From contig JAHISS010000107.1 of the NCBI GenBank assembly GCA_018817905.1, forward strand, positions 1 to 39,554: DNA of 39,554 bases, written 5' to 3'. Both the position numbers and the translations under genes were made by a program. This DNA comes from Nanobdellota archaeon (GTDB taxonomy: Archaea > Nanobdellota > Nanobdellia > Pacearchaeales > GW2011-AR1). The notes under the pieces are model-generated. The model saw only the letters and a program-made list of their open reading frames with translations, ran no database searches and was not told where the DNA came from. Shown one piece after another: positions 1-39,554 of the stretch. Numbering within the stretch: position 1 is the stretch's first letter; every line of letters starts with the position of its first letter.

Positions 1-70
1 CAACTTTGTTTTTTCTATAACCTTGTTTTACCGCAGACAATTTCTTACAAAATTGGCATTTTGTTTTCAT
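1..70 (-). CDS. First 23 codons of a CxxC zinc-ribbon protein gene leaving the window leftward; possibly the N-terminus of an IS-type transposase or InsA-like protein
   Basis: ATG at 68..70 on the minus strand, with GGAGGT (78..83) 7 nt upstream. It translates to MKTKCQFCKKLSAVKQGYRKNKV, the same peptide as at 39483..39554. Confidence 0.5.
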   Translation of the reverse strand, partial: MKTKCQFCKKLSAVKQGYRKNKV

Positions 71-139
71 AGAACATACCTCCTTATCAGAAGGTTAATC
101 TATCAGATTATATAAATCTGACGTTAATTGGACAGTATC
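1..139. repeat. Left copy of an inverted repeat of at least 139 nt (partner 39414..39552); runs off the window edge
   Basis: The reverse complement of 1..139 aligns gap-free to 39414..39552 (about 125/139). The inner 31 nt (109..139) are identical, the next 38 nt match 25/38, and the 70-nt coding part matches 69/70. Confidence 0.9.
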
Positions 140-993
140 CCCAACGCCTCAGCAATAACCCCTGAAACATCAATCCTGCTGAATTTATTTTCAATTGCGT
201 TTGTCGTTATTAAGCTTGCGTGTTTTCTGATTCTTTTTGCTGCGTCGCCTACGAGAACTCCGTGGACTCCGATGACTGTCACTTTTTCAGCTCCGTGATG
301 CTTTGCAACTTTTATTGTTTCAAGGATTGTGTTTCCTGTCCCGATTATGTCGTCTATGATTATTGTGTTTTTTCCGAGGGGCTTGCTTTGGATTTTTACT
401 TTTTCCCAAGTGAACCGCGTTTTTTTGAGAATTGTCGCTTGTTTACCGAGTAAGTTTGCTATGCGTTGAGCCCATTGTCTGCTTTCTTTGTCAGGTCCGA
501 CAATTGTGAACGGCTCTTTGAAATTCTTTTTGATATATTCAGCGATTAAATTATTTGCCGAAAGCTTTTCAAAATTCTTTCCGATTTGCTTGATGTTTTT
601 TATTCGTTGCAGGTGGGGGTCAATTATCAGGATTTTATCAAAGTTTTTTAGTAAAGGTGAAATGTATTTTATTGAAAAGGAATCAAAGTTTTCGAAATGT
701 GTATCTTGCCGAAGATAAGGGAAATAAGGAGCAGCCAAAATAATTTTTTTTGCCCCGAAATCCTTGGCAATTCCTGCTGCGAGAATTGTTTCAATCAATC
801 GATTATTTTGGTCTCTTGAAAACGAGTTGAAAATAACAACTGTTTTATTCTTTGGAGACGTTTTGAATTTCACGTAAGATTCTTCATCCGGAAAATCTTT
901 GACTTGAATTTCTTCGCAAGGCGTTTTTATTTGTTTAGCAACTAATTTCGCAAGAGTTTTTGTTGCGGGGAATGTTAGGATTAGAGTTGACAT
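124..993 (-). CDS. prs: Ribose-phosphate pyrophosphokinase (PRPP synthetase)
   Basis: 289-aa ORF with the PRPP-binding loop IIIDDIIGTGNTI, a DPHL motif and a length typical of archaeal Prs. The last four codons plus the stop (ILSN*) lie inside the terminal inverted repeat. Confidence 0.85.
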   Translation of the reverse strand: MSTLILTFPATKTLAKLVAKQIKTPCEEIQVKDFPDEESYVKFKTSPKNKTVVIFNSFSRDQNNRLIETILAAGIAKDFGAKKIILAAPYFPYLRQDTHFENFDSFSIKYISPLLKNFDKILIIDPHLQRIKNIKQIGKNFEKLSANNLIAEYIKKNFKEPFTIVGPDKESRQWAQRIANLLGKQATILKKTRFTWEKVKIQSKPLGKNTIIIDDIIGTGNTILETIKVAKHHGAEKVTVIGVHGVLVGDAAKRIRKHASLITTNAIENKFSRIDVSGVIAEALGILSN

Positions 994-994
994 T

Positions 995-1630
995 TTAGGA
1001 TTTACAAAGCCTATTCAATTTTTTAAAAGCTTGCTTTGGATTTTTTGATTTGGAAACGTATGAACCAATGTTAGCGTAATTGACGCCCGCTTTTGCAAGT
1101 TTTGGGATTATTCTCGGAGATGCGCCGCCGTCGACCTGGATTTTTATTTTTTTGTTTGTTTTTCTAAGAGCTTTTATTTTTTCAAGAGTCTTTGGGTTAA
1201 AGGAAACTCCTTCAACTCCGGGCGTGTGGCCCATGAAAAGGAGAACGTCTGCGAGGTTGGAAAGTTCTATGATTTTTTTTATTGGAGCATTAGGGTTAAA
1301 CGCAATCCCTGCTGTGAGATTTAGGGATTTTATTTGGTTTAGGATTTTTTCGGGATTTTTTGTAGCTTCGAAATGAAAGAAGATTTTTTTGAAACCTTTT
1401 TGTTTCAATGTTGAGAGATATTTTTCTGGATGCAGGCACATTAAGTGAGCTTCGAAATTGTTTTTGAACTTGGCAAGGTTTGGGATATCACGAGGTTGGA
1501 TTGATTTTGCTTTTACGAATTTTCCGTCCATGAAGTCTATTTGGATATTTTTTGAAATCGGCAAGATTTTTTTGAATCTTTCTTCGAATTCTTTTTTGTT
1601 GTGGGCGAAAATTGTTGGGATTAGTTTCAT
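995..1630 (-). CDS. rpe: Ribulose-phosphate 3-epimerase
   Basis: The ORF runs to 1840, but family similarity begins at Met71 (ATG 1628..1630). Motifs: IDFMDGKFV, AHLM, FHFEA, FNPNAP, MGHTPGVEGVSF, QVDGG. Confidence 0.75.
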   Translation of the reverse strand: MKLIPTIFAHNKKEFEERFKKILPISKNIQIDFMDGKFVKAKSIQPRDIPNLAKFKNNFEAHLMCLHPEKYLSTLKQKGFKKIFFHFEATKNPEKILNQIKSLNLTAGIAFNPNAPIKKIIELSNLADVLLFMGHTPGVEGVSFNPKTLEKIKALRKTNKKIKIQVDGGASPRIIPKLAKAGVNYANIGSYVSKSKNPKQAFKKLNRLCKS

Positions 1631-1781
1631 TTTCCGATCTTCCTTAAGATTATCATATAAACCAGAGTCGATTGGGATATGTGCTGTTGATGGCGATTGT
1701 CTTTTAATTTTACTTGCTGCGACTGGGAGTTTTACTGTTAAATTTCTTTTTTGTTGGTTTGGTAGTGCTGGCATTTTTGTT

Positions 1782-2237
1782 TTAGGGAAGAGTAGTCCAT
1801 TTTCCAATCTTCCTAATCCTGCGTTTATGTCTCTCCTCATTCGAGAAAGGAGTTTTCAACCAAATTGAAATAATCTTTTTTGTTTTTTCAAATGAAAAGT
1901 TTTTGGCGCGCAGGGCAAGGATATTTGTGTTGTTGTGTTCGCGAGAAAACCTTGCGGTGAATGCGTCGTAAGCTGTGACTGCCCGGATTCCTCTGAATTT
2001 GTTTGCTGCGATTGCCATGCCAACTCCAGAACTACAAACTAAAATTCCTTTCGAGTTTTTATTTTTTGAAACCTTTCTCGCAACTTTTGACGCAAAGTCA
2101 GGATAGTCGTCTTTAGGATTGTAAGAAAAAGGTCCGAGGTCTTCAACTTGATGCAGCTTTTGCAGATAAGTCTTGAGTTTTTCTTTTAGTTTGAAGCCGG
2201 CGTGGTCTGATGCGAGAAAAATATCTACCTCTTTCAT
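1782..2237 (-). CDS. rpiB: Ribose-5-phosphate isomerase B (RpiB/LacAB family)
   Basis: 151 aa with SDHAGFKLKE, CSSGVGMAIAANK, REHNNTNILAL and a C-terminal RHKRRIRKI tail. Confidence 0.85.
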   Translation of the reverse strand: MKEVDIFLASDHAGFKLKEKLKTYLQKLHQVEDLGPFSYNPKDDYPDFASKVARKVSKNKNSKGILVCSSGVGMAIAANKFRGIRAVTAYDAFTARFSREHNNTNILALRAKNFSFEKTKKIISIWLKTPFSNEERHKRRIRKIGKWTTLP

Positions 2238-2275
2238 GTTGAAAGTATGTTGAAGGAATTTATAATGGTTTTGTT

Positions 2276-2608
2276 TTAGTTTCTAAGGAGTTCACAGATT
2301 CTTTCTATGACTTCGTTAATCTTTTCCTGCTTTAGTGAACCAGCTTTGTACTCAATCAGAGAATAATCTCCTGTGAATAGATTAAGTGGTCTGACAAAGC
2401 TGTTTTGTTTTAACTTGCCTTTGTTAAAGTCTTCTTCTCGGATTGGCATTTTCTGTTTGTCATTGTAGGGGTTGCTTGTTATTTGACAAAGAAGAATATC
2501 TTCTCCTCCCAAATCTAATAGAACTAATGCTGGACGTTTTTCTACTCCTGTCAAATCAGAAAAAGGAAAATGTATTATTACAACATCTCCCTTCACAAAT
2601 CTTTCCAT
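2276..2608 (-). CDS. PemK/MazF-family type II toxin (mRNA interferase)
   Basis: 110 aa. N-terminus VKGDVVIIHFPFSDLTGVEKRPALVL followed by CQITS, typical of PemK/MazF. It overlaps the upstream small gene by 16 nt. Confidence 0.75.
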   Translation of the reverse strand: MERFVKGDVVIIHFPFSDLTGVEKRPALVLLDLGGEDILLCQITSNPYNDKQKMPIREEDFNKGKLKQNSFVRPLNLFTGDYSLIEYKAGSLKQEKINEVIERICELLRN

Positions 2609-2790
2609 GCCTCAGTCTCCTCAGGAGTGAGCCAATCCTTTGCTAAAGATTTTTCTGACAAAAGCGCGGTAACTGGAATGCCAGACTCTTTTTCTTCTTC
2701 TACAGTTATAACTAAATGATTTAATTTTTCTTCAATTGTTTTCATCTTCAGGTATAACATTTCTAAAGTTACATTTCTTTGCATTTCCAT
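2593..2790 (-). CDS. Cognate antitoxin (small acidic protein)
   Basis: 65 aa counted from ATG 2788..2790; the ORF track extends to 2844. The C-terminal LSEKSLAKDWLTPEETEAWKDL tail is of the type seen upstream of PemK toxins. A TATA-like element is centred about 26 nt upstream of this ATG. Confidence 0.5.
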   Translation of the reverse strand: MEMQRNVTLEMLYLKMKTIEEKLNHLVITVEEEKESGIPVTALLSEKSLAKDWLTPEETEAWKDL

Positions 2791-2811
2791 GATTTTTGAG
2801 GGGAATTTGTG

Positions 2812-2821
2812 TTTATAAAAA
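2812..2821 (-). promoter_or_regulatory. TATA-like box for the antitoxin-toxin operon
   Basis: The minus strand reads TTTTTATAAA, centred about 26 nt upstream of ATG 2790. Confidence 0.45.
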
Positions 2822-2850
2822 TTCCTATTGTTTTGTTTTAGCACAAAAAC

Positions 2851-2858
2851 TATTTAAT
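2851..2858 (+). promoter_or_regulatory. TATA-like box for the SpoIIM-like gene
   Basis: TATTTAAT centred about 25.5 nt upstream of ATG 2880. Confidence 0.4.
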
Positions 2859-2879
2859 CTCCAATTCCCTGTTATCAAA

Positions 2880-3737
2880 ATGTTAGAAATGTTAATCAAC
2901 CCGAAGAAGGCGGAGAGGCGGCCTTGGGAGATGTTTTTCGTCGGGGCGTTTTACGCGAGCTTGGCGGTTTTGCTGGTTGATTGGGTTTTTTCGCAAGATG
3001 CTGTTCTTGTCAAAAGTTCTGGGATATTGGTTGTGTTATTCACTGTTTTGTTTTCTCTTCCTTTTATTTATTACACGATTAGATTAGAAGAAACAAAAAT
3101 AGAAAAAGGTCGTGGCAGTTGGCAGTTGTTGAAAGACCATCGGCATGCGATATATACGTTTCTCTGGCTTTTTGTTGGTTTTACTGTTGCTTTTGCGTTT
3201 TGGTATAGTCTGCTTCCGACGACTCAAAGTTTTCGGGCGCAGATAGAAACATACTGCATGATAAACCGGCCTGGCGATTTTGACCAGTGTGTCAGAGATT
3301 ATGGAATTAAGGACACAACGCAGGTTACACCTTTTTTAACTAACAAAGAAAGATTGTTTTTGATTTTCACTAATAATATGTATGTTCTCCTTTTCACGTT
3401 GGTTTTTTCTTTGATTTTCGGGGCTGGCGTGATTTTTATTTTGGCGTGGAACGCGAGCGTTATAGGGGCGGCGATTGGAATCTTTACAGATTACAAGATT
3501 GCTGCTCTGCCGCTTGGCTTGTTGAGATTTTTCCTTCATGGAATTTTTGAAATCGGTTCGTATTTCATAATTGCGCTTGCCGGAGGAATGGTTTCTGTTG
3601 CAATCATCAGACATGAAACTGGAACTGAAAAATTCTGGGAAGTTTTGCAGGATTCTCTTAACTTAATTATTCTCTCTGTTGTAATTCTTTTTGTAGCAGC
3701 ACTGATTGAGGTTTTTGTAACTCCGTTGTTGTTTTAG
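2880..3737 (+). CDS. SpoIIM/DUF95-family integral membrane protein
   Basis: Multi-pass hydrophobic protein with FTNNMYVLL, AWNASVIGAAIG and FLHGIFEIGSYFI motifs. The start is set at MLEMLINPKK (2880) rather than the ORF-track 2796. Confidence 0.6.
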   Translation: MLEMLINPKKAERRPWEMFFVGAFYASLAVLLVDWVFSQDAVLVKSSGILVVLFTVLFSLPFIYYTIRLEETKIEKGRGSWQLLKDHRHAIYTFLWLFVGFTVAFAFWYSLLPTTQSFRAQIETYCMINRPGDFDQCVRDYGIKDTTQVTPFLTNKERLFLIFTNNMYVLLFTLVFSLIFGAGVIFILAWNASVIGAAIGIFTDYKIAALPLGLLRFFLHGIFEIGSYFIIALAGGMVSVAIIRHETGTEKFWEVLQDSLNLIILSVVILFVAALIEVFVTPLLF

Positions 3738-3749
3738 ATGCATGAAAAG

Positions 3750-3758
3750 TTTATATAA
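3750..3758 (+). promoter_or_regulatory. TATA-like box upstream of aglB
   Basis: AAAAG-TTTATATAA lies about 31 nt before ATG 3789. GAAGGT (3777..3782) is a possible Shine-Dalgarno sequence. Confidence 0.4.
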
Positions 3759-3788
3759 TGCTGTTTTTATCTGTTAGAAGGTTAAAAG

Positions 3789-6536
3789 ATGGAAGAAGAA
3801 ACAGGGGAAATTCTTGAGGACAAAACCGCTGGGATTGTTTCAGACGAGGAAGTCCTGCGAATAAGAAAAGACAAAATTGTTAAGTTTTTCAAGACCAATT
3901 ATAACTGGCTTGTCTATGTTGGGCTGGCGATTGTTACTTATCTTGCTGTTAAAATAAGGACGAGCAATCTTGCTGGATTAAGGGACGTAACAACTGGGAC
4001 GTGGACGCTTGGACCTGACTTGGATCCTTTCTTTTTTCTCAGACTTGCTCAATATATCGTTGAACATGGGCATCTGATGGCTGTGGACATGATGCGATAT
4101 GTGCCGCGCGGTTTTGACATGAGCGGAGAGTATTTGCTGCATCCTTACATGATGGCCTGGTTTCATAATTATCTCGGGCCGCTGTTGGGGACAGAATCTG
4201 TGACTCATTCAGCTGTTTTGTATCCTTCTTTTATGTTTGCTTTGACTGTGATAGCATTTTTCTTTATGACAAAAAAGATTTTTGTTGAGAGCCTTGGAGA
4301 AAAAAAGGCAAATATTATTGCACTGATTGCTTCGTTTTTTCTTTCTGTAATTCCATCGCTTTTACCTAGAACAATTGCGGGAATACCTGAAAAAGAATCT
4401 GCTGCGTTCCTCTTTTTGTTCCTGTCGTTTTACTTTTTCTTGTCAGCATGGAAATCTAAAAGCAGATCTTGGGGCTATGTTTGTGCTGTCTTGGCTGGCG
4501 CAGCTACTGCTGCAATGGCAAACATTTGGGGCGGATATATCTTTATCTTTCTGACTATTGCCCCAGTTATCTTTTTTGCATTTATCTTTGGGAAAGTTGA
4601 TAAAGGTAAATTTTTAGTTTATTCGACTTGGTTATTTTCTTCATTTGTCTTGATGGCTTTAACAAAATTTGACGTTAAGAGCTTGGTCAGTTCTGTTTCA
4701 ACTGGTCCTGCTACAGTTGTTTTTTTTGTTATTGCCATTCATTTTTTGTTGTTTGGCACAAACCTCAAGAAACATTTTGAATCAGGTAGATTTTCTAAAA
4801 TCCCGCCAAGGATTGCATCAACTTTGGTTACGGTGATTGTTTTGATTTTATTGGCGAGCGTTATTTTTGGACCATTGTTTATTCCATCCAAGCTTGGTGC
4901 GATAAAAGATAGTCTTGTTAAACCTGCGACCAGCAGATTGATTCAAACTGTTGCAGAAAACAGACAGCCGTATTTTACAGAATGGGAAAGCAATTTTGGG
5001 CCGCATGTGCGTGGTGCTGCTTTAACTTTTTGGTTGTTCTTTTTTGGTTCGGCGTATTTGTTTAATTTTATGATTTCTTCTTTAAAGAAGAAAGAAAGAT
5101 GGATTCTGAATTCTGCTTACTTAATTCTTTTAACAACTGTAATTTTTAGCAGGTATTCTTCCGGCAGCACTTTGAACGGAGAGAACTTTTTTAGCTTGTT
5201 TGTTTACGGGATGGGTTTTATTGTTTTTATTGGAGCTGCAGGGTTTTATTACTACAAGTACCATAAAGAAGGAAGGTTAGAACGGTTAAAACAAATAGAC
5301 CTGAGTTTGATGCTTGTGTTTTCCCTCTTCTTTTTGTGTATTGTAGCTGCGAGGTCTGCAGTCAGAACAATAATGATGCTGGTTCCTCCTGCTTCGATAA
5401 TTGTTTCATATTTTGTTGTGGCTGCTTACAGTGATGCGCGAAAAGTTAAAGACCATACCTGGAAAATTTTAGCTTGGTGCGCAGTCGTCTTAATCATTAT
5501 TAGTACTTTGTTTGCAGGTTATGGATTTTACAAAAGTGTCAGCGCCCAAGCTCCAAACCATGTGCCTTCGATTTACACGCAGCAATGGCAAAAGGCAATG
5601 GGCTGGGTCAGGGAAAACACTCCGGAGAATGCGGTCTTTGGTCATTGGTGGGATTACGGATATTGGCTACAGACAATGGGCGAGAGAGCGACTGTTTTAG
5701 ACGGAGGAAATGCAATAGCTTACTGGAATCATATGATGGGGAGATATGCCCTTACCGGGACAAATGAAACAGAGGCTTTGGAATTTTTGTATGCACATAA
5801 CACAACGCATTTTTTGATAGATTCAACAGATATTGGAAAGTATTCTGCATTTTCTTCAATTGGTTCTGATGCTAATTATGACAGGGCGAGCTATATCCCT
5901 ACATTTATCAGAGACAGTGGGCAAATGCAAGAAAAAAAGAATTCAACTGTTTTTGTTTACTCTGGAGGGGTTGGACTGGATGAAGATGTGATTTATGAAG
6001 AAAATGGAACAAGAGTATTTTTACCAGCTGGCAAGGCAGGTCTTGGCGCAATCTTTGTAGAAAAAGAATCTTTGGAAGGAGAGGTCATCGAACAGCCAAG
6101 GGGAATATTTGTTTACCAAGGGCAGCAATACAATCTGCCTTTCCGATATGCTTTTGATGGCGAGTTCAAAGATTTTGGTTCTGGGATTGAGGCAGGGATA
6201 TTTTTAATGCCCTCTATCGAAACCTCTGGGGGCGGTTTGGGAATTGAACCAGATGGAGCGCTTCTTTACCTAAGCAAGAGAACTGTGAACTCTCAGCTTG
6301 CAAAGATTTATTTGTATGAACTTGATAGTTCTTACTTTAAACTTGTTCATTCAGAAGATGATTTTGTTGTTGGCCAGATAAAGGGACAGATTGCTGGATT
6401 TGATTCTGACATCGTTTACTATCAAGGAGTTCGGGGGCCAATAAGAATCTGGGAAATTGATTATCCTGATGACATGAAAGTTGAAGAGAGATTTTTAGAC
6501 ACTAATTATCCTAAAGAAATAGCGTATGCAACATGA
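3789..6536 (+). CDS. aglB: Archaeal oligosaccharyltransferase (STT3 family, GT66)
   Basis: 915 aa with a long multi-TM N-terminal half and a soluble C-terminal half. The catalytic WWDYG motif is encoded in frame at 5646..5660 (FGHWWDYGYW). Confidence 0.9.
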   Translation: MEEETGEILEDKTAGIVSDEEVLRIRKDKIVKFFKTNYNWLVYVGLAIVTYLAVKIRTSNLAGLRDVTTGTWTLGPDLDPFFFLRLAQYIVEHGHLMAVDMMRYVPRGFDMSGEYLLHPYMMAWFHNYLGPLLGTESVTHSAVLYPSFMFALTVIAFFFMTKKIFVESLGEKKANIIALIASFFLSVIPSLLPRTIAGIPEKESAAFLFLFLSFYFFLSAWKSKSRSWGYVCAVLAGAATAAMANIWGGYIFIFLTIAPVIFFAFIFGKVDKGKFLVYSTWLFSSFVLMALTKFDVKSLVSSVSTGPATVVFFVIAIHFLLFGTNLKKHFESGRFSKIPPRIASTLVTVIVLILLASVIFGPLFIPSKLGAIKDSLVKPATSRLIQTVAENRQPYFTEWESNFGPHVRGAALTFWLFFFGSAYLFNFMISSLKKKERWILNSAYLILLTTVIFSRYSSGSTLNGENFFSLFVYGMGFIVFIGAAGFYYYKYHKEGRLERLKQIDLSLMLVFSLFFLCIVAARSAVRTIMMLVPPASIIVSYFVVAAYSDARKVKDHTWKILAWCAVVLIIISTLFAGYGFYKSVSAQAPNHVPSIYTQQWQKAMGWVRENTPENAVFGHWWDYGYWLQTMGERATVLDGGNAIAYWNHMMGRYALTGTNETEALEFLYAHNTTHFLIDSTDIGKYSAFSSIGSDANYDRASYIPTFIRDSGQMQEKKNSTVFVYSGGVGLDEDVIYEENGTRVFLPAGKAGLGAIFVEKESLEGEVIEQPRGIFVYQGQQYNLPFRYAFDGEFKDFGSGIEAGIFLMPSIETSGGGLGIEPDGALLYLSKRTVNSQLAKIYLYELDSSYFKLVHSEDDFVVGQIKGQIAGFDSDIVYYQGVRGPIRIWEIDYPDDMKVEERFLDTNYPKEIAYAT

Positions 6537-9868: not shown

Positions 9869-9969
9869 GGAATAAACCTTGCAAAAGTTGAAGATTGATT
9901 GAAGCTCATAGCCACAAAAAGCTATGGGAATTTCTTTTCAATTAAAGACTATACTGAAACATAAAAAGT

Positions 9970-9977
9970 ATTTTAAA
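9970..9977 (+). promoter_or_regulatory. TATA-like box for radical SAM gene 1
   Basis: ATTTTAAA centred 25.5 nt upstream of ATG 9999, which supports the shorter start. Confidence 0.4.
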
Positions 9978-9998
9978 GCTATACTAATGAAAGAGGGT

Positions 9999-11393: not shown

Positions 11394-11394
11394 C

Positions 11395-18126: not shown

Positions 18127-18173
18127 TGTTAATCTAAACAAATAGAGTTTTTATGTATTTCTAAAGTCTATAT

Positions 18174-18186
18174 AAAACTTTTTAAA
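18174..18186 (+). promoter_or_regulatory. Promoter element AAAACTTTTTAAA of ferredoxin copy 1
   Basis: Identical 13-mer to 20698..20710. Its T/A core is centred about 25 nt upstream of ATG 18208. Confidence 0.45.
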
Positions 18187-18207
18187 TGCCTTTTGTTTTG
18201 TGGGGGT

Positions 18208-18393
18208 ATGTCTAAAAAAATAAAGATTGACGAGGAGAAATGCATTGGCTGCGGTTTGTGTGCTGAGTTGGCTCCTAAGAATTTTGAAATGCGCGGCGAT
18301 AAAGCTATTGTGAAAAAAGCAGCTGTTGAAAAAGCAGACGACGTGAATGGGGCGGTTGAGTCTTGCGCAGTCGAAGCCATATCTGTTTCATAG
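18208..18393 (+). CDS. Small single-cluster ferredoxin (Pyrococcus-type)
   Basis: 61 aa: KIKIDEEKCIGCGLCAELAP...ESCAVEAI (CxxCxxC...C). GGGGGT lies before ATG 18208. Confidence 0.75.
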   Translation: MSKKIKIDEEKCIGCGLCAELAPKNFEMRGDKAIVKKAAVEKADDVNGAVESCAVEAISVS

Positions 18394-27099: not shown

Positions 27100-27124
27100 A
27101 AAGTTGAAAGAAATAAGAGATTTT

Positions 27125-28249: not shown

Positions 28250-28262
28250 TTTCTTTTGGTTT

Positions 28263-29201: not shown

Positions 29202-29205
29202 TTTG

Positions 29206-30126: not shown

Positions 30127-30244
30127 AGATTCGATTCATTAAACAGATTTATAAATTTTTGCTAAATGGGAAGATGGTTCAAAGTTTGACTTGGGATTAA
30201 TTGAGGGGTGTTAGTTAATTTATGTGTTTATAAATCAACGAATA

Positions 30245-31252: not shown

Positions 31253-31543
31253 AGAAGAATCAGAACAAAGGAAGTTTTTAAATATTCTGAAGAAGATTTT
31301 CTATGAACGTTCTTTGGAAGGATTTTGCGCGTGGTGCCCCTTTAATTTCCCACATGACTCGTGGCAACATTTACCAGAGTAAGTATTCAAGCAAAACCAC
31401 AAACTTTTGAATCCAACGATGATTCCTGAAGATGCCTCAATCTTGCATTTTCATGCTGTTTGAAAAATAACCTCAGAAAGGCTCTTTTTAAAAATTTGCA
31501 ACTCGTTTGTCAGCTTTAAAGTTAAGGATTTCAAGAGGAAAAA

Positions 31544-33097: not shown

Positions 33098-33570
33098 TTT
33101 ATCACTTTTAATTTCACATGAATTTCTTTAAAAACTCCGCGAATAACTAAACTTAACTTCCTTCTTAAAAACTTAGGAATATATACACCAAAATTTGGTG
33201 ATGGTTCAACTTCTAATTCGACAATTTCCCACCCTTTATTTTCTTCTCCCCAGTCTGTTACCGGCATTGTTAAATATTCAAATGTAGCTTCTGCAAAATA
33301 ACTAACATGCCCAAGCATACTAAATGAACCCTCATTATTAAAATGAGGTACATAAATCTCTATTATTCCATTAGTCTTACAAATCCTGTGTAATTCATTT
33401 AACACATTTTCTGTCCATCTTAAATGTTCTAATACATCTCTTGTAAAAATATAATCATAAGTATTATCCTTAATTGGATATGGAAATACCTCAAAATCAA
33501 AATCTTTTTTATCAAAATTATCAAACCCTTCCTTTATATCCAATCCGCATCCAAAATTTAACTTTTTCAT
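33094..33570 (-). CDS. Small class I SAM-dependent methyltransferase
   Basis: KLNFGCGLD, YDYIFTRDVLEHL and NGIIEIYVPH; 158 aa. Confidence 0.65.
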   Translation of the reverse strand: MKKLNFGCGLDIKEGFDNFDKKDFDFEVFPYPIKDNTYDYIFTRDVLEHLRWTENVLNELHRICKTNGIIEIYVPHFNNEGSFSMLGHVSYFAEATFEYLTMPVTDWGEENKGWEIVELEVEPSPNFGVYIPKFLRRKLSLVIRGVFKEIHVKLKVIK

Positions 33571-33686
33571 TTTTTTCGGTAAATGTTCCTCCCTCTAAAT
33601 TGTTTTGGTATTTCCTTTTTATATTCGCCGTAATAAACTTCCTTGTGTGTTTGTTCTGTTCCCATATTCGTTGTTTGTTCTTTCAT
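33567..33686 (-). CDS. Possible 39-aa upstream ORF coupled to the methyltransferase / radical SAM pair
   Basis: ATG 33684..33686. It translates to MKEQTTNMGTEQTHKEVYYGEYKKEIPKQFRGRNIYRKK, and its TGA overlaps the methyltransferase ATG (ATGA). It is below the ORF-track cutoff and no family was recognised. Confidence 0.2.
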   Translation of the reverse strand: MKEQTTNMGTEQTHKEVYYGEYKKEIPKQFRGRNIYRKK

Positions 33687-33791
33687 TTTAACGCCCCATT
33701 CCCTTTTCAGACATATTACTTATATTCTCTAATCAGCTCGGGTTTGTTTCTACTCGGCTATTTATATGCTCTTTCTCATTCCATTCTTTAT

Positions 33792-34721
33792 TTAGTCCTC
33801 ATTTCCATTTTTTAACAAATCTCTCATATTAATTAATTCAATTTTTCCTTTTTTCTTTAACTTAAGAACAGTATTTAAAATTATCTTTAAATTTTTCAAA
33901 CTTTTAAAGGTGAAGTCATGGCAACAAAGACAATATACTGCGTTTTTATCACGTTTATTTGCATTTTCTTCTATATCTTTTAATATTCTTTTTATCCTGC
34001 CTGGCTTACTTGTTCCATCAAAAGTAGATGAAACATGCACAAAGGTTAATCCGTATCTTTTAAATGGAGGAATAACTTTAAATTTGTGAGTCATTTTTTT
34101 TGGAAAATCCTCCAGCCCGGTATACCTTATAATCTTAAAACCATTTTTTCTTAAAGCAGAATATAGGACAGAAGGATTAGACTTGTCTTCAGTTATATTA
34201 AACGGAGAAGAACATGAAACAGGGCTTACTCCTATTTTATTTGCTGCATTTTTTGCAGCGCGTATACCTGAATCAACGATTTTTGATTCTTCTAATGGCC
34301 AACACTCATGTGCAAAACCATGGATTCCCAAATCAAAAAGGGGATTGTTTTTCATCTCTTTTTCTATAAAGTCTCCAAGGTAGAGTCCCGGATATTCAGA
34401 ATAGCCTGATTTAGGATCCCAGTAATACCAATTTTTTTTAAAAAACCATTTTGCTTTGGGTTTTAATTCATTAAAATGCGGCCATCCATTACAAGACTTT
34501 AAATAAAGATGCCCAGTAATGTTAAATGTTGCAGGAATTTGATTTTCCTTAAAAAATGTTACTAGATTTTTAAGGCCTTGGCGATTTTTAGCATAGATAA
34601 ATTTACCTCTTATTTTATTAAGGCGCCATTTTATTTGATAAATTTTAGAAAAACTATAAAACGGATTTTGAATATACTTCCAAAAGTCTGCTTCCGTATC
34701 GACGCTTAATAAGAACCTCAT
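33792..34721 (-). CDS. Polysaccharide deacetylase (CE4/NodB-like)
   Basis: FLLSVDTEADF, PATFNITGHL and DLGIHGFAHE (metal-binding Asp/His pattern); 309 aa. Confidence 0.65.
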   Translation of the reverse strand: MRFLLSVDTEADFWKYIQNPFYSFSKIYQIKWRLNKIRGKFIYAKNRQGLKNLVTFFKENQIPATFNITGHLYLKSCNGWPHFNELKPKAKWFFKKNWYYWDPKSGYSEYPGLYLGDFIEKEMKNNPLFDLGIHGFAHECWPLEESKIVDSGIRAAKNAANKIGVSPVSCSSPFNITEDKSNPSVLYSALRKNGFKIIRYTGLEDFPKKMTHKFKVIPPFKRYGLTFVHVSSTFDGTSKPGRIKRILKDIEENANKRDKNAVYCLCCHDFTFKSLKNLKIILNTVLKLKKKGKIELINMRDLLKNGNED

Positions 34722-34742
34722 TTTGGAGGGAGAACAAATATA

Positions 34743-34750
34743 TTTTTAAA
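34743..34750. promoter_or_regulatory. Shared central TATA-like octamer of a 50-nt divergent spacer
   Basis: TTTTTAAA, within ATATATTTTTAAATATATA, lies exactly 21 nt from the start codons at 34721 (-) and 34772 (+). Confidence 0.45.
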
Positions 34751-34771
34751 TATATAGTCTTACTTTAGATT

Positions 34772-36070
34772 ATGAAGTGGAAAGGATTTAAAGACATACA
34801 AGCCACAATTATTATAGATCTTAGTTTGTCTGAAGCGGAGCTTTTAAAAAACGCAGATAGAAGCAGGAGAAAGAATGTAAAAAAGGCTGAAAATGTGGGG
34901 CTTTTATTTCAAGAGGTAAAAACAAAAGAAGAGTTAGACAAATGGTATCTAATCTATCAAAAAGTGTGGAAAGCGGGGGGAATAGAATCGCAAGATATCA
35001 GTGAATTTAAAAAAGAGAATTATAAATTAGTTGTAGTAAAAAAAAGGGGCAAAATCCTGGGCGGTGGGATTATTGAAGAATTAAAAGATAAAATTGTCTT
35101 TAAGGCGTTTGCTTCTCTAATTGAGTTCCAAGACTTGAGGGTGAATGACTTTTTATATTGGAATGCTATTTTATACGGAAAAAAACTTGGGAAAAAATAT
35201 GTGGATCTTGGGGGCTGGCAGATTAAATCTCGAGGGCATCTTGCTGGAATCAATGAATTTAAAGAAAAATGGGGTGGAAAGGTTGTATATTACTATATTT
35301 ACAGCAAAAACCCAGCATACATTCTTGGAAGAAAAGCGATTAGGAACTTCGCATTTGGAAGATGGTTCTGGGATAGAATCAAAGGAAGACCTATTCAAAG
35401 AAGAAGTAAACATAAAAAAAACAAAAACGAATATGAGAATAAAGAATCAATTCAGCATTTCTCTACAATTAATAAAATTTTTGAAAAAGAAAAATATCTA
35501 ATTGAAAAGTATTTCAAAGGGAAAATTTTAGATTTGGGTTGTGGATGTGGAAGAACAACTAAAGAATTGTTCGATAGGGGTTATGATGTCGTGGGGGTAG
35601 AAATAGTTGAAGATATGGTTAAAGCGGCTAAAGACAATTTTCCTCAAATAAATTTTGAAATAGGCGATGCCTGCGATTTAAAATTCTCCAATGAGAGTTT
35701 TGATATTGTCTTTTTTTCTTACAATGGATTAGATTACATCTATCCCGAAAAAGAGAGAATTCGAGCATTGGAAGAAATTGAAAGAGCTTTAAAAAAGGGG
35801 GGATATTTTATTTATAGCTCCCATGACCCTTCTGTTTTAGTAAAAAAATTTAGACCTAAGTTTATTTTTAGAAATCTCATGAAGGGATCCATTTTTTCAA
35901 GATACAAATATGAACAGCAACCTTTCGGTGGATTCTATACATACTATGGTAATTTGAAGAAACAGAGGGATCTGATTGAAAAAAATACCTCCTTGAAGTA
36001 TGTTGAAACTAAGAGAGATAACCCAAAAGATTTACATCCTTATTATGTTTTTAAGAAAAATGGAAAATAA
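34772..36070 (+). CDS. Fusion protein: N-terminal FemAB/GNAT-like acyl- or aminoacyl-transferase domain plus C-terminal class I SAM methyltransferase
   Basis: Residues about 1-200 resemble the FemAB/BioF2-like GNAT fold (LSEAELLKNADRSRRKNVKKA, YWNAILYGKKLGKKYVDLGG, NEFKEKWGG). A K-rich linker follows. Residues about 250-432 show ILDLGCGCGRTT, VVGVEIVEDMV and FDIVFFSYNGLDY. Confidence 0.6.
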   Translation: MKWKGFKDIQATIIIDLSLSEAELLKNADRSRRKNVKKAENVGLLFQEVKTKEELDKWYLIYQKVWKAGGIESQDISEFKKENYKLVVVKKRGKILGGGIIEELKDKIVFKAFASLIEFQDLRVNDFLYWNAILYGKKLGKKYVDLGGWQIKSRGHLAGINEFKEKWGGKVVYYYIYSKNPAYILGRKAIRNFAFGRWFWDRIKGRPIQRRSKHKKNKNEYENKESIQHFSTINKIFEKEKYLIEKYFKGKILDLGCGCGRTTKELFDRGYDVVGVEIVEDMVKAAKDNFPQINFEIGDACDLKFSNESFDIVFFSYNGLDYIYPEKERIRALEEIERALKKGGYFIYSSHDPSVLVKKFRPKFIFRNLMKGSIFSRYKYEQQPFGGFYTYYGNLKKQRDLIEKNTSLKYVETKRDNPKDLHPYYVFKKNGK

Positions 36071-36638
36071 AGTGCCTCTTGGGATGAAGGATAGACCTAA
36101 GCAGATTCTTAACTTGGTTCCGAAAGATGTTAAAACTGTCTTAGACATTGGATCAGTTAAACCAAGTCTGTTCTCAGAGAGATATAAAACGTTAACGATG
36201 GATTATTCAAACGCCGATATAATGATGGATTTAAACGGGCTGCAAAAAATTCCCCTTCGAAGTAAGTCTATAAATTTAGTTGTCTTGTCTCAAATATTAG
36301 AGCATCTTTTTGAATTTGAAAACCTTATAGCTGAAGCAAAAAGAATTTCTAATAAATATATTTTGGTAGGACTACCCAACGAGTTTACAATAGATAATAG
36401 AATAAAATTTTTGTTTGGTGTACCCCCCAGTCTGAAAGGATACGACAAAAATGGACATAAATATTTGTTTGATATCCAAAGTGCGGAAGAATTGATTCAG
36501 CTTTTTTTTAAAGGTTATTTAAAGAAATACTTCCTTTTTGGGGTAACTGGGGGGAGATATCTACCCCTCGCGACGAGAAGGATTTTAGCAAGATTTATTC
36601 CTGGACTTTTTGCTGCACAGATATATTATTTAATATAA
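36060..36638 (+). CDS. Probable class I SAM-dependent methyltransferase
   Basis: Starts at MENKVPLG (ATG 36060), overlapping the upstream gene by 11 nt. Motifs: TVLDIGS, INLVVLSQILEHL and KYILVGLPNE. Confidence 0.5.
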   Translation: MENKVPLGMKDRPKQILNLVPKDVKTVLDIGSVKPSLFSERYKTLTMDYSNADIMMDLNGLQKIPLRSKSINLVVLSQILEHLFEFENLIAEAKRISNKYILVGLPNEFTIDNRIKFLFGVPPSLKGYDKNGHKYLFDIQSAEELIQLFFKGYLKKYFLFGVTGGRYLPLATRRILARFIPGLFAAQIYYLI

Positions 36639-36734
36639 AATTGAAAGTACGTGCTAAACTTTATAAGCTTCTTTTTTATTAGCTTACAAAGAATAAAAAC
36701 AGTAACTCAAATGGAATCCTTTAAAATGCCGTTA

Positions 36735-36869
36735 ATAAAGAACGATTGTCTTAAAGATAAGGCTATCTCTTCGGGAGTATCCAGGGAAATTAAGAAAAAA
36801 CATCCTGATTCAAAAATAACTGTGCTTTGTTCATTAATTAATAAGGAACTGATTGAAAAGAATAAAAAT
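36735..36869 (+). pseudogene. Stub of a GT9 gene 5' end; direct repeat of 38446..38580
   Basis: Encodes IKNDCLKDKAISSGVSREIKKKHPDSKITVLCSLINKELIEKNKN, against IRNDCIGDMVISSGVFREIKKKHPDSKITVLCSSINKELIEKNKN in the intact GT9. The run 36792..36834 matches 38503..38545 perfectly over 43 nt. The stub is in frame with the downstream radical SAM ORF. Confidence 0.7.
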
Positions 36870-36875
36870 AAAAAG

Positions 36876-38390
36876 ATGACCAAAATCGTACTAATTTCAC
36901 TTTATGATACCGCTTCTATTGGGCCTAGAATTCTGCATAAAGTTCTTGATGAAAAAGGGTATGAAGTGCATAGTATCTTCTTTAAATCTGGAAACTTGAC
37001 AAATGTGACAAAAAAGGAAGTTAAACTTTTGCTGGATAAAATTAACGAGATTAAACCTCAATTGATTGGCATTAGTTTAAGATCGAGATGTTTTAAAATT
37101 GCAACCAGATTAACAAAAGATATCAGAAAAGAAATAGATACCAAGATAATTTGGGGAGGGGTGCATCCCACCATAAAGCCAATGGACTGCTTAAAGTTTG
37201 CAGATATGATCTGTATAGGTGAGGGAGAAGAAGCATTGGTGAATCTTGCTGATTTAATAGATAAAAAGAAGAGTATTGAGAACGTTAAGAATATTTGGAT
37301 AAAATTTGGCAAAAAGATAATTAAAAATGATTTAGCACATTTAGAAGAGGACTTAGATAAAATTCCCTTTCCTGATTTTTCTGATTCAAACAAGTACTAT
37401 GTAGAAGATAATAAATGTTCTTGTGAGAATATATTCCCAGATCATCAAATAGTTTATACAATTATGACCACAAGAGGTTGTCCTTTTTCCTGTTCTTTTT
37501 GTAATGGGGGATCTTTGAGGGAGATTTATCACGGCAAAGGTAGGTATCTCAGAAGGAGGAGTGTGGAAAATGTGATAGAAGAATTAGTACTAGCAAAGAA
37601 AAGTTGGCCCTCAATCAAAAAAGTATATTTCATTGATGATGTTTTTTCTTATGATCTTGAATGGATTAAAAAGTTTAATCCATTATATAAGAGACATATT
37701 GGTCTTCCTTTTTATTGCTATGTTCACCCCGTTTATGTTAAGGATGAAACTATAAAAGTTCTGAAAGATATGGCATTATACGAAGTTAATATTGGAATAC
37801 AAAGTGGTTCTGAAAAGCTTCGAAAGGAAATTTATCATCGACCAGAATCTAATGAACAAATCGTCAATTCCATTAAAATCCTGAATAAATATAAGATTAG
37901 GGCTGTTTGCGATTTAATACTGGGAAATCCTTATGAAACTGAATCTGACAAGAAAGAAAACCTTAATTTACTGGTGAAATTGCCTAAGCCAATAATTTTG
38001 CTTACGTATAACCTCCTATTCTTCCCTAACAAGCTTACTGAAATGGCATTAGAAGACGGACTTATCAGTGAAAAAGACCTTGAAGAAAATAAAGAAAGAG
38101 TATACCACAGATGGGATGATAAATTTTTACAGAATTTTTCAAATACAGACTTGCTTTGGAATGGCCTTTACTATCTTGCATCAAAAGGATATCCTGATTG
38201 GTTAATTAAATGGTGTTATAAATCAATGAAAAAAAATCCTGCTATTTTAGTCTCATTAGTAAAGGGGATTGAAAGAAAGAACTTGCTTATATCCTCAGTT
38301 CCAAAGATAATGGGATATGTTAAAAGGAAGCAGTTTAAATTATTATTTGCTAAACTAAAGAGAAATTTAAGACTAACATCTCTTCGTTAA
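36876..38390 (+). CDS. B12-binding-domain radical SAM enzyme, paralogue 5
   Basis: MTKIVLISLYD..., IIWGGVHPTIKPMDC, ICIGEGEEA, TTRGCPFSCSFC and NIGIQSGSEKL motifs. The ORF track extends upstream to 36651 through the GT9 stub. The start at 36876 gives 504 aa, in line with the other paralogues. Confidence 0.85.
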   Translation: MTKIVLISLYDTASIGPRILHKVLDEKGYEVHSIFFKSGNLTNVTKKEVKLLLDKINEIKPQLIGISLRSRCFKIATRLTKDIRKEIDTKIIWGGVHPTIKPMDCLKFADMICIGEGEEALVNLADLIDKKKSIENVKNIWIKFGKKIIKNDLAHLEEDLDKIPFPDFSDSNKYYVEDNKCSCENIFPDHQIVYTIMTTRGCPFSCSFCNGGSLREIYHGKGRYLRRRSVENVIEELVLAKKSWPSIKKVYFIDDVFSYDLEWIKKFNPLYKRHIGLPFYCYVHPVYVKDETIKVLKDMALYEVNIGIQSGSEKLRKEIYHRPESNEQIVNSIKILNKYKIRAVCDLILGNPYETESDKKENLNLLVKLPKPIILLTYNLLFFPNKLTEMALEDGLISEKDLEENKERVYHRWDDKFLQNFSNTDLLWNGLYYLASKGYPDWLIKWCYKSMKKNPAILVSLVKGIERKNLLISSVPKIMGYVKRKQFKLLFAKLKRNLRLTSLR

Positions 38391-38391
38391 A

Positions 38392-39429
38392 ATGAAAATG
38401 ATTAAAACAAGTGAAAAAGTAAGAAGACCGATTAAAATAATTCTTATAAGGAATGATTGCATCGGGGATATGGTTATTTCTTCAGGAGTATTCAGAGAAA
38501 TCAAGAAAAAACATCCTGATTCAAAAATAACTGTGCTTTGTTCATCAATTAATAAGGAATTGATTGAAAAGAATAAGAATGTTGATGGCATAATTGTGTG
38601 CAATCCATTCTGGAGGGAGAAAACAATAGCATCATTTAATAACTACTTTAAGATAATCAAGAGAATAAAAAAAGAGAAGTTTGACATAGGTATTGATTTA
38701 AGATCAAGCTATATGACTCTTTTTTTCTTCTTGTATCTTGGGAGAATAAAGAAAAGAGTAGCATACTATGACCATCCTTTTAATAAGTCCAAAAGATTCC
38801 TGACTGATGCTCTTCCTTATAAAAATAACATAACCATTCATGCGAGCATTAATGATTTGAATTTGGTTAACTTTGCATTGAATATGGACAACAAGGACAA
38901 TTGGCCGGATATCGTGACTGACAAAGAGGATGTAAACAATCTAAAAGCTTTTGTAAATCAAGATTCCAACATGCTAAAGCCGTTTATATGCATTGTCCCT
39001 GACGCTAGTTCTGAAAGAAAACAATGGTCCTTAAACAAATTTAATAACATTATTAAGTATATTAGAGGTGGTTATCCTGAATATGACATTTTTTTGGTTG
39101 GAAGTAATGCAAAAAAGATAAATTATCTTTGGAAGAGGAATAGAGGAGCTATAAGATGTATAAATCAAAGTCTTAGAATGGTTTATCTTCTTTTCAAGCG
39201 TAGTAATTTAATAATTGCTCCGGATGGTGGTCCCATGCATTTAGCATGGGCTGCTAAAACAAAGTTAATTGCATTAATTCCCAAATATCTAAGTTTGGAG
39301 CATATGGGGCCTTTAAACAAAAATTCTCACGTCATATACAGTGAGATAAGTGAAATAAAAACTGATGAAATAAAGAAATTGATTGATAACATACTTATAA
39401 GAGACAGGCAAGAGATACTGTCCAATTAA
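38392..39429 (+). CDS. GT9-family glycosyltransferase (heptosyltransferase-like), copy 2
   Basis: ILIRNDCIGDMVISSGVFREIKKKHP is a GT9-type N-terminus. IIAPDGGPMHLAWAAKTKLIALI is a GT9 donor-site-like segment. The last four codons plus the stop (ILSN*) lie in the terminal inverted repeat. Confidence 0.7.
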   Translation: MKMIKTSEKVRRPIKIILIRNDCIGDMVISSGVFREIKKKHPDSKITVLCSSINKELIEKNKNVDGIIVCNPFWREKTIASFNNYFKIIKRIKKEKFDIGIDLRSSYMTLFFFLYLGRIKKRVAYYDHPFNKSKRFLTDALPYKNNITIHASINDLNLVNFALNMDNKDNWPDIVTDKEDVNNLKAFVNQDSNMLKPFICIVPDASSERKQWSLNKFNNIIKYIRGGYPEYDIFLVGSNAKKINYLWKRNRGAIRCINQSLRMVYLLFKRSNLIIAPDGGPMHLAWAAKTKLIALIPKYLSLEHMGPLNKNSHVIYSEISEIKTDEIKKLIDNILIRDRQEILSN

Positions 39430-39552
39430 CGTCAGATTTATATAGTTTGATAGTTTAACCTCTCTGAAAGGAGGTTAATGCTATGAAAACAAAATGCCAA
39501 TTTTGTAAGAAATTGTCTGCAGTAAAACAAGGTTATAGAAAAAACAAAGTTG
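39414..39552. repeat. Right copy of the inverted repeat (partner 1..139); runs off the window edge
   Basis: Same alignment as the left copy. The perfect 31-mer GATACTGTCCAATTAACGTCAGATTTATATA lies at 39414..39444. Confidence 0.9.
39437..39444 (+). promoter_or_regulatory. TATA-like box of the outward-facing zinc-ribbon gene (mirror copy at 109..116)
   Basis: TTTATATA forms the last 8 nt of the perfectly conserved 31-mer. GGAGGT lies at 39470..39475 and the ATG at 39483. Confidence 0.4.
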
Positions 39553-39554
39553 GA
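39483..39554 (+). CDS. First 24 codons of the second copy of the CxxC zinc-ribbon protein gene, leaving the window rightward
   Basis: MKTKCQFCKKLSAVKQGYRKNKVG, with GGAGGT 7 nt upstream of the ATG. It differs from the left copy by one synonymous change (GCA vs GCG). Confidence 0.5.
   Translation, partial: MKTKCQFCKKLSAVKQGYRKNKVG

Follow-up and report, generated by a model that had tools for sequence, protein, structure and literature searches.

A contig of 39,554 nt from a DPANN (Nanoarchaeota) archaeon carries one sequence, in inverted orientation, at both of its extremities, and this arrangement raises the question of whether the glycosylation region between the two arms is a mobile or invertible unit or whether the contig simply stops, on both sides, at a repeated element. 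The stretch analysed here (the window) is a complete contig, since no contig carrying its prs is longer than 39554 nt; "bracketed" is accordingly to be read as describing a contig whose two ends both fall within the repeat. The inverted geometry described in the initial annotation was reproduced in all its parts. The reverse complement of positions 1..139 aligns gap-free with 39414..39552 at 125/139 identical nucleotides, and this identity is partitioned into an inner core (109-139 and 39414-39444) with 31/31 matches, a leader with 25/38 matches (three substitutions and four small indels in a gapped alignment), and an orfA coding part with 69/70 matches, whose single change (GCG/GCA, both Ala) is synonymous. 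Read outward, both copies translate as MKTKCQFCKKLSAVKQGYRKNKV(G) from an ATG preceded at 7 nt by GGAGGT, and the prs and GT9 genes that read into the repeat from the inner side both end in ILSN-stop within it. The 22-mer at the repeat tip has just two sites in the window (0.00 expected by chance), and a tRNA scan of the window found none. A repeat placed exactly at both contig ends might suggest a chimeric or fold-back join made during assembly. However, the arms are only 90% identical, which does not correspond to a k-mer overlap, the junctions recur in independent assemblies, and the same tip is found in many other contexts; an artefact is accordingly regarded as highly improbable. Of the two junctions, that between prs and the left terminal inverted repeat (IRL) was recovered from an NCBI MAG and also from two Logan assemblies of separate runs, and that between the GT9 gene and the IRL from the NCBI MAG.

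Each arm can be divided, from its tip outward, into the parts of the left end of an insertion sequence (IS). In copy 1 (variant 1, minus strand) the IRL occupies 118..139 (GATACTGTCCAATTAACGTCAG, the same 22-mer as 39414-39435) and also holds the final four codons of prs together with its stop. It is followed by a putative archaeal TATA box of the transposase promoter (109..116, TTTATATA), by a leader (71..108) in which an anti-SD ACCTTC (90-95) pairs with the SD GGAGGT (78-83), and by the first 70 nt of orfA (1..70), which encodes a zinc ribbon and HTH protein and runs off the contig. Copy 2 (variant 2, plus strand) comprises an IRL at 39414..39435 in which the GT9 gene finds its final four codons and its stop, a putative TATA box at 39437..39444 (TTTATATA), a leader at 39445..39482 whose hairpin (39455-39463 with 39470-39478) pairs the SD GGAGGT (39470-39475), and the first 72 nt of orfA (39483..39554), which again run off the contig. 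The TATA octamer constitutes the last 8 nt of the 31-nt core and is 100% identical in five copies; a TATA-like box is kept at the same place in most family members. Folding of the two leaders gave a minimum free energy of -8.9 kcal/mol (z = -3.5, SD fully paired) for copy 1 and of -10.3 kcal/mol (z = -3.3) for copy 2. The pairing is retained between the two copies despite their substitutions and indels, and across the IS family 38/45 distinct leaders have a paired SD. Such a hairpin would block translation of the transposase from read-through transcripts. Transcription from the IS promoter, by contrast, would begin within the hairpin loop, so that the SD stays unpaired; promoter, start site and hairpin function are all predicted from consensus spacing only.

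The initial annotation read the repeat as two inverted copies of a duplicated or mobile element and saw a resemblance to zinc ribbons of the IS1/IS1595 kind that 23-24 residues could not establish. Exact and back-translated DNA patterns of the orfA start had no match in GTDB representative genomes, and Pfam gave no significant result for a 146-aa fragment. The window copies display 23-24 codons of orfA, and the family assignment rests on full copies in relatives. A third copy, found at locus L005 in a metagenome scan, has an orfA of 109 aa whose N-terminus is identical to that of the window copy and which runs on into a HYDEKY..KVKG..D DDE motif. The full copy in locus L006 (106..1113) measures 1008 bp, its IRL and right-end repeat (IRR) match at 17/21 positions, and its orfB carries the Pfam domain DDE_Tnp_IS240 (PF13610). 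A conceptual orfA-orfB fusion scored 32.2 bits against DDE_Tnp_IS240 (cutoff 27) and matched the NCBIfam profile transpos_IS6 in one continuous stretch over profile positions 1-201 of 202 (E 1.2e-23), while its 83.9 bits against the NCBIfam IS6 equivalog lie under the cutoff of 125. For orfA, more than 200 homologues of 97-116 aa were found, and in more than 100 homologues the frame is closed by a stop at this length. Related loci number 52, nearly all of them in DPANN MAGs, and include approximately 30 complete copies, 994-1018 bp long, whose ends are of the GATACTGT type; the terminal repeats are 22 nt long, imperfect, read GATACTGT..., share ACTGT with IS26 and lack a GG start. Tests for IS1 yielded 23-26 bits against transpos_IS1 (cutoff 100), mainly over the N-terminal part, no match to the Pfam IS1 DDE domain, and a weak match of the zinc ribbon to the IS1/IS1595 N-terminal domain (NCBIfam NF050000, E about 0.005-0.009).

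The full copies with terminal repeats and a DDE domain bear out the mobile element, and of the proposed IS1/IS1595 likeness the zinc ribbon retains its weak match whereas the catalytic part of the full copies is of the IS6/IS240 type. Because only 23-24 codons are visible in the window, the repeat might also be read as belonging to an ordinary family of duplicated cellular genes that have kept a conserved promoter and N-terminus. This reading has a negligible probability; it is refuted by the terminal repeats, 9-bp duplications and DDE transposase domain of the full copies, which lie in unrelated contexts in dozens of genomes. The contig ends are the left ends of an approximately 1.0-kb IS6-like IS of DPANN archaea, and the full-length, intact state of the two window copies is extrapolated from other copies.

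The genes that read into the element are prs (ribose-phosphate diphosphokinase; 124..993, minus strand) and a gene for a GT9-family glycosyltransferase (38392..39429, plus strand). Both are full length, and each carries a short IS-encoded tail, comprising its last four codons and stop, because every reading frame of the repeat tip is closed by a stop codon (16, 32 and 45 nt in). In alignment A1 the prs orthologues end in AL[KR]K plus 0-3 residues and ILSN occurs in 0/17, while in alignment A2 the GT9 homologues end 0-5 residues past the ..KIL position and ILSN occurs in 0/13. These comparisons agree with the earlier proposal that the inner end of the repeat supplies the ends of both genes. The further proposal that the native 3' ends were replaced applies to only about 1-5 residues, and apart from these few C-terminal residues the genes touched by the IS are intact. 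Other copies of the family cap genes as well: at 6/43 IRL junctions, an ORF of 80 codons or more terminates within the IRL, as exemplified by L014, where the protein ends in ...FEILSI followed by the stop.

The relationship between the two window copies bears directly on how the arrangement arose. In bin GCA_018815165.1, IRL junctions were detected on contigs 129, 176, 7 and 108, which gives the bin a minimum of four copies; these fall into two variants that are 178/180 identical in orfA. The bin may mix strains, and "at least four copies in one genome" strictly means in one bin. The left arm of the window is identical to the contig-7 copy (139/139 nt) and the right arm to the contig-108 copy (JAHIYI010000108; 139/139 nt). 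Since the two window copies belong to different variants and each matches another copy of the bin over 139/139 nt, they are probably not sisters of one inversion event, although such kinship could have been lost through gene conversion between copies. Their membership in different variants points to two independent insertions, in which a variant-1 copy would have entered the last codons of prs and a variant-2 copy those of the GT9 gene. As assemblers cannot cross a multi-copy repeat, a contig would be expected to end there. An independent assembly breaks at the same base (L001 and L004 end where the window ends), and the k=31 contigs of Logan stop within the 31-nt core; the element therefore accounts for the assembly breaks, as had been suggested. 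Taken jointly, a multi-copy IS6-like IS, two insertions into gene ends and contig breaks at these insertions very probably explain the locus.

Simple insertion of both window copies, which we infer, would have left a 9-bp duplication flanking each of them. The 9 nt abutting the IRL of copy 1 (140..148, minus strand; GGCGTTGGG in IS orientation) and those abutting the IRL of copy 2 (39405..39413, plus strand; CAGGCAAGA) are the expected inner members of such duplications, and their outer partners lie beyond the window, which covers 139 nt of each copy. Elsewhere in the family the target duplication is 9 bp in 12/12 copies that have one, and 15/27 complete copies with both flanks available are without one. 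That about half of the complete copies are without target duplications is expected for replicative or recombinational histories, and would suit a different origin, in which a single IS inverted the 39 kb by intramolecular replicative transposition in trans and thereby made its second copy. Trans intramolecular transposition is a known route to inverted copies in IS6/IS26, and the same IS end facing inward on both sides is the product of this pathway (PMC7986276). A replicative copy is nevertheless identical to its parent at birth, whereas the window copies are separated by three substitutions and four indels in the leader plus one coding SNP, and their perfect matches (139/139) elsewhere in the bin are two different copies; in addition, the gene order beside prs matches that of relatives up to the IS. 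An inversion of this kind is thus considered unlikely, and two separate insertions remain the preferred origin. Recombination between the near-identical inverted copies might still flip the segment, the 178/180 identity of the variants in orfA being the one observation in favour of this.

The initial annotation also allowed for mobilisation of the whole glycosylation region as a composite element formed by the two copies and the 39 kb between them. The cargo is of a kind that is often strain-variable (glycosyltransferases, B12-radical SAM enzymes and methyltransferases), and the G+C content falls to 0.29-0.33 over 27-39 kb, save for one 1-kb bin at 0.35. The segment also contains housekeeping genes (prs, rpe, rpiB, queC and AglB/STT3), however, and in its left part it keeps synteny with IS-free relatives, the core order STT3-SpoIIM-rpiB-rpe-prs being found in L064, which is without IS. 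Functional IS6-type pseudo-compound transposons have been reported with direct repeats only, their flanking copies being described as always direct and not inverted (PMC7986276). Assembly by itself would be expected to produce contigs delimited by a multi-copy repeat, with the inverted orientation arising in one of two cases a priori, and no second occurrence of the segment was seen. A composite transposon is consequently very improbable. With at least four copies in the bin, window copies of different variants and a left part that is syntenic chromosome, the 39 kb is not supported as a unit; to speak of a bracketed glycosylation island is an over-reading of a contig that ends in a multi-copy IS on both sides, and the bracketing mostly reflects contigs ending at repeats rather than a demonstrated composite transposon.

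The position of the insertions at gene ends may be explained by a target preference of the family. Among the flanking sequences, 15/49 on the IRL side and 9/31 on the IRR side have an outward-facing TATA octamer at a distance of exactly 14 nt from the tip, and no other distance between TATA and tip is represented by more than four flanks. This spacing suggests a preference for insertion 5 nt plus the 9-bp stagger upstream of a TATA box. In the relatives L063 and L064, the TATA-like box of the downstream ABC-ATPase gene overlaps the last prs codons and lies 4-5 nt beyond the point homologous to the prs insertion. If, as in these compact genomes, the TATA box of the next gene overlaps the end of the preceding gene, a preference for sites upstream of TATA would direct insertions into gene ends because of that overlap; selection against insertions deeper in essential genes would contribute too. 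At both window junctions the inner side is without a TATA octamer at 14 nt, and the predicted box would lie on the outer side. The outer flank on the prs side was sought through the ABC-ATPase gene, a protein too conserved for this purpose, with no match in the accession range of the bin.

The two reading frames of the family are offset in a constant manner. In 31/31 loci orfB lies in the +1 frame behind an invariant T6-7AAAAT motif. Other ways of expressing orfB were considered and rejected. Transcriptional slippage in the T-run was discarded after inspection of L006 by hand, in which any change of length puts the TAA at the T/A boundary in frame, and -1 slippage on U_UUU_UUA or U_UUA_AAA leads, in the same copy and likewise by hand, to a closed frame. 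Separate translation of orfB was rejected for most copies, in which no start codon lies between the preceding stop and the first catalytic D.

An IS that caps contigs is ordinary in itself, and this IS group has some unusual features. The group appears to be common in DPANN archaea and is a main cause of fragmented MAGs there. We tentatively propose, as a possibility that we hold slightly more doubtful than probable, that it is an undescribed DPANN-wide IS6-like branch that combines obligatory +1 recoding at UUUUUU(U)AAAAU with insertion at 5 nt plus a 9-bp stagger upstream of TATA, possibly by reading a promoter bent by TBP/TFB, and that it would routinely re-tail genes in compact genomes, as at both ends of this contig; a role of TBP/TFB in IS targeting is pure conjecture. 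If true, the group would offer, in its conserved frame offset, a rare archaeal candidate for programmed +1 recoding, and the fixed TATA spacing would represent promoter-guided integration by a prokaryotic DNA transposon. The limited collection of literature searched contained no description of the DPANN IS group, its frameshift or its TATA-proximal targeting.

Comparison with known systems places the group closest to the archaeal IS6-like elements, clades that ISfinder lists in its IS6 family, while marking several differences. Like them, it has an IS240/IS6-type DDE domain with an HTH before the catalytic domain, the K-x-R spacing after the catalytic E (NNNPIERYNGKIKDR in L006) that serves as a signature of archaeal IS6 transposases, and a predicted promoter at the left end. 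Its terminal repeats exceed 14 bp and have no GG start; longer repeats, often not starting with GG, are reported for archaeal IS6 members too (PMC6807381). The DPANN group differs from these elements in its size (about 1.0 kb against 0.7-0.9 kb), its extra N-terminal CxxC...CxxC zinc ribbon, its split coding region, with orfB constantly in the +1 frame, in place of one ORF, its target duplications of 9 bp instead of 8 bp, its score relative to the NCBIfam equivalog (83.9 against a cutoff of 125), and its hosts, as the archaeal IS6 lineages named in a review do not include DPANN (PMC7986276). With bacterial IS26/IS6, known for replicative cointegrates and for intramolecular inversion, it shares the catalytic family, many copies without target duplications, the possibility of inverted pairs through trans intramolecular transposition, and the ACTGT core of the terminal repeat. 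The terminal repeat of IS26 is GGCACTGTTGCAAA. The window copies are different variants, and for this reason the inversion pathway of IS26/IS6 is an unlikely origin for them. In IS1 (InsA / InsAB'), too, a short orfA with zinc ribbon and HTH precedes a DDE orfB read in a different frame, and target duplications measure 9 bp; the weak NCBIfam similarities to transpos_IS1 and the IS1/IS1595 zinc domain add to the likeness. IS1, however, uses a -1 frameshift on A6C, whereas the offset in the DPANN group is +1 behind T6-7AAAAT and its catalytic domain is that of IS6/IS240 and not the IS1 DDE. In some copies of the group the proposed recoding site is AAA-UAG with a 2-nt overlap, which resembles the +1 sites of Euplotes. 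Promoter-proximal targeting is a feature of the eukaryotic retroelements Ty3, Ty1 and Tf1, with which the group would share integration at a fixed short distance from a site bound by basal transcription factors; here the element is a DNA transposon in archaea, and the targeting is known from a statistic of sequence distances only. Finally, IS10 and IS50 are protected from outside transcription by fold-back inhibition. The DPANN group has a comparable predicted hairpin between the IS end and the start codon, pairing the ribosome-binding site, whose upstream arm precedes the predicted IS transcription start and would be present only in read-through transcripts, in this case in an archaeal promoter context.

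The inverted repeat with partitioned identity that the initial annotation had described at the window ends was confirmed on realignment, the reverse complement of positions 1..139 pairing without gaps with 39414..39552 at 125/139 positions. While the inner 31 nt of both arms (GATACTGTCCAATTAACGTCAGATTTATATA) are identical (31/31), the leaders match at 25/38 positions ungapped (3 substitutions and 4 small indels when gaps are admitted) and the first 70 coding nucleotides match at 69/70, with a synonymous GCG/GCA change as the sole difference. Both arms carry a Shine-Dalgarno (SD) GGAGGT 7 nt upstream of the ATG. The tip 22-mer occurs at only two sites in the window, one in each arm (chance expectation 0.00), and the window is itself a complete contig of 39,554 nt. 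The names carried by its prs orthologues assign the contig to Nanoarchaeota / DPANN.

A scan of JGI metagenomes using the last 31 known nucleotides as query returned a third copy (L005), whose upstream context is unlike that of the window. In this copy the interrupted reading frame, orfA, extends to 109 aa and encodes CxxC...CxxC followed by an HTH-like region; after it, in another frame, lies ...HYDEKYTKVKGKDHYDLNCID..., a DDE first-aspartate motif. A protein search with orfA yielded 213 homologues, nearly all of 97-116 aa and located on contigs of about 1 kb. L006, one of these contigs, carries a complete element (106..1113, 1008 bp) that has ends GATACTGTCTAATTAACGTCA and GATACTGTCAACTAATCGTCA, matching at 17/21 positions, and encodes an orfA of 102 aa and an orfB of 201 aa with the Pfam domain DDE_Tnp_IS240; an IS200-type Y1 transposase gene directly follows it (L006 1127-1612). 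A conceptual orfA+orfB fusion gave an uninterrupted match to NCBIfam transpos_IS6 at 83.9 bits (E 1.2e-23), short of the 125-bit cutoff, and scored above the cutoff of PF13610. Because of this complete element and the IS6-type profile matches, the inner 31 nt are assigned, on sequence grounds, to the left terminal repeat of an IS6-like insertion sequence (IS) plus a TTTATATA box, the latter a putative transposase promoter by the archaeal consensus. The earlier reading of the repeat as a mobile element was therefore correct, the arms being the left end of this IS. Its suggested resemblance to IS1/IS1595 survives as a weak match of the fusion N-terminus to the IS1/IS1595 zinc domain, but the family is IS6-like.

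To define the family, 52 loci were surveyed in GTDB representative genomes, DPANN in nearly all cases. Complete copies measure 994-1018 bp, with one further copy of 902 bp, and have 22-nt ends of GATACTGT type. Target duplications were identified in 12 copies and are 9 bp long in 12/12 (L017, L018, L019, L026, L028, L029, L031, L032, L034, L037, L038 and L040); they are absent from 15/27 complete copies with both flanks available. A leader hairpin that pairs the SD is present in 38/45 distinct leaders (mean z -2.6), with arm sequences that vary among copies, which explains how the leader can diverge while the parts flanking it stay constant. At the canonical TATA-to-start spacing of about 23 nt, the element's own transcript would start in the hairpin loop and would lack the anti-SD arm, so that only transcripts reading through from prs or GT9 would be silenced by the hairpin. 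The 38-nt leaders of two IS variants (window 71-108 and 39445-39482; L061 2874-2911 and L062 5363-5400) keep the SD-pairing hairpin despite the 3 substitutions and 4 indels between them. This change is a local excess, given that the variants match at 178/180 positions of orfA and at 31/31 of the terminal repeat plus TATA box; patch recombination and selection are candidate causes.

Comparison with an independent assembly, bin GCA_018815165.1, clarified why the contig ends where it does. Contig 129 of the bin exactly matches window 1-4355 and contig 176 corresponds to the GT9 end of the window, both ending inside orfA at the same base as the window; two Logan contigs (k=31) end within the 31-nt core. 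Contigs 7 and 108 carry the same element at a contig end, the former identical to the left arm (139/139) and the latter to the right arm (139/139). The two IS variants differ at 14 positions over these 139 nt and match at 178/180 over the 180 nt of orfA that follow. This puts the number of IS copies in the bin at four or more, in two variants. The window has one copy of each variant, which argues against replicative descent of one from the other. With at least four copies in the bin, a contig that stops in the IS on both sides is an expected assembly outcome and the inverted orientation a 1-in-2 chance. The proposal that the repeat explains the assembly break thus holds. Contig 108 also carries an IS66-type transposase gene and a reverse-transcriptase gene (L062 62-1366 and 3123-4181).

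Both flanking genes, prs (124..993, minus strand) and the GT9 glycosyltransferase gene (38392..39429, plus strand), enter the repeat by 16 nt and terminate in ILSN-stop. The IS tip presents stops in all three frames, 16, 32 and 45 nt in, and in the wider family its left end closes ORFs of at least 80 codons at 6/43 left-end junctions (e.g. ...FEILSI* in L014). The 17 aligned orthologues of prs (52-71% identity) finish with ...AL[KR]K plus 0-3 residues beyond an invariant Leu, with ILSN in 0/17; GT9 homologues extend 0-5 residues past the ...NIL position, and the ILSN ending was not found in any of those aligned. Replacement of the native 3' ends, as initially claimed, is upheld in that ILSN is foreign to the homologues, but it concerns at most a handful of residues, and both proteins are full length.

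Analysis of the flanks suggests promoter-proximal target choice by the IS. In 15/49 distinct left flanks (including L005, L011, L025, L027, L036-L038, L041, L043, L055, L061 and L062) and 9/31 right flanks (L014, L016, L019, L031, L032, L035, L038, L044 and L047), a TATA octamer pointing outward is separated from the tip of the IS by exactly 14 nt; any other distance is seen in 4 flanks at most. About 30% of independent insertions thus show this spacing, the target being TATA-N5 followed by the 9-bp duplication; L038 displays the full symmetric form, TATA-N5-[9-bp duplication]-N5-TATA, and contigs 7 and 108 obey the spacing. In two relatives, L063 and L064, the last prs codons and the stop are overlapped by a TATA-like box (TATTTATA and CATTTTTAA), 22-23 nt upstream of the next gene's ATG and 4-5 nt past the site that corresponds by homology to the insertion point in the window. 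The prs insertion therefore sits where the family rule predicts for the downstream gene's promoter, and its predicted TATA box would be in the outer flank of the IS, beyond the window. A downstream promoter may likewise explain the GT9-side insertion.

The idea that the 39-kb segment inverts or mobilises as a unit was not supported, and no evidence of either was found in the window or the related contigs examined. For IS6-type pseudo-compound transposons, flanking copies have been described in direct orientation only; inverted pairs are a product of trans intramolecular transposition (PMC7986276). L064, a relative that lacks the IS, has the order STT3-SpoIIM-rpiB-rpe-prs as in the window, with an ABC-ATPase gene 22 nt after prs, which identifies the left part of the window as core chromosome. 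The approximately 99% identical copies could still recombine and invert the segment. The inverted repeat is in itself ordinary.

Pfam annotation of the segment identified prs, rpe, rpiB, a PemK toxin gene, SpoIIM, AglB/STT3, QueC, a GT4-family (Glycos_transf_4) transferase, several GT1, GT2 and GT9 glycosyltransferases, a flippase, methyltransferases, an HldE-like kinase/cytidylyltransferase and a sugar-nucleotide dehydratase/epimerase (GDP-mannose 4,6-dehydratase family). The PemK/MazF-like gene, with a small ORF upstream of it, separates rpiB from SpoIIM (2276-2844); neither is present in the syntenic stretch L064 1307-1408. Five B12-binding radical SAM genes (9924-11393, 15136-16557, 25567-27099, 31544-33097 and 36651-38390) and one radical SAM/SPASM gene (29206-30126) stand among the methyltransferases and glycosyltransferases of one glycosylation cluster, a density unusual for an archaeal glycan locus. 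A 149-nt copy of the GT9 5' coding region (36721-36869 versus 38432-38580, 84% identical) is fused in frame upstream of the last B12-radical SAM gene (ORF 36651-38390), whose true start is probably near MTKIVLIS; the copy testifies to a partial duplication in the past. Direct repeats of 88 nt (18173-18260 and 20697-20784, 77% identical) each contain a promoter-like box of TTTTTAAA type together with the beginning of a short ORF, MSKKIKIDEEKCIGCGL..., of ferredoxin-like (4Fe-4S) appearance. An internal IS5-like element (21073-22221) has 19-nt inverted repeats, 89% complementary, and a 309-aa transposase (DUF772 + DDE_Tnp_1) at 21139-22068; the adjoining short GT2-like ORF (20039-20608) may be a gene remnant. 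G+C is 0.29-0.33 over 27001-39554 (one 1-kb bin 0.35) versus 0.32-0.40 elsewhere in the contig, which suggests a different history for the right third of the cluster.

As the window ends at orfA codon 24, the orfA/orfB junction was read in related copies only. There orfB lies in the +1 frame relative to orfA at 31/31 loci where both motifs were located (L006 460-500; also L005 and L008-L053), and the junction is an invariant T6-7AAAAT (31/31). The orfB frame opens right after a TAA straddling the T/A boundary, and most copies are missing an orfB start codon; at eight loci orfA terminates ...TTA AAA TAG and overlaps orfB by 2 nt only. These features point to a candidate programmed +1 recoding site at AAA|U in archaea. 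The IS group differs from the IS6 members catalogued so far in several defining features and merits its own description. Its target duplications are 9 bp, against the 8 bp given for the IS6 family. In the IS6 review, only a few members 'apparently require a frameshift', with unclear relevance (PMC7986276). The AAA|U site, here predicted from sequence, resembles the +1 sites AAA-UAA/UAG of Euplotes (PMC4759687).
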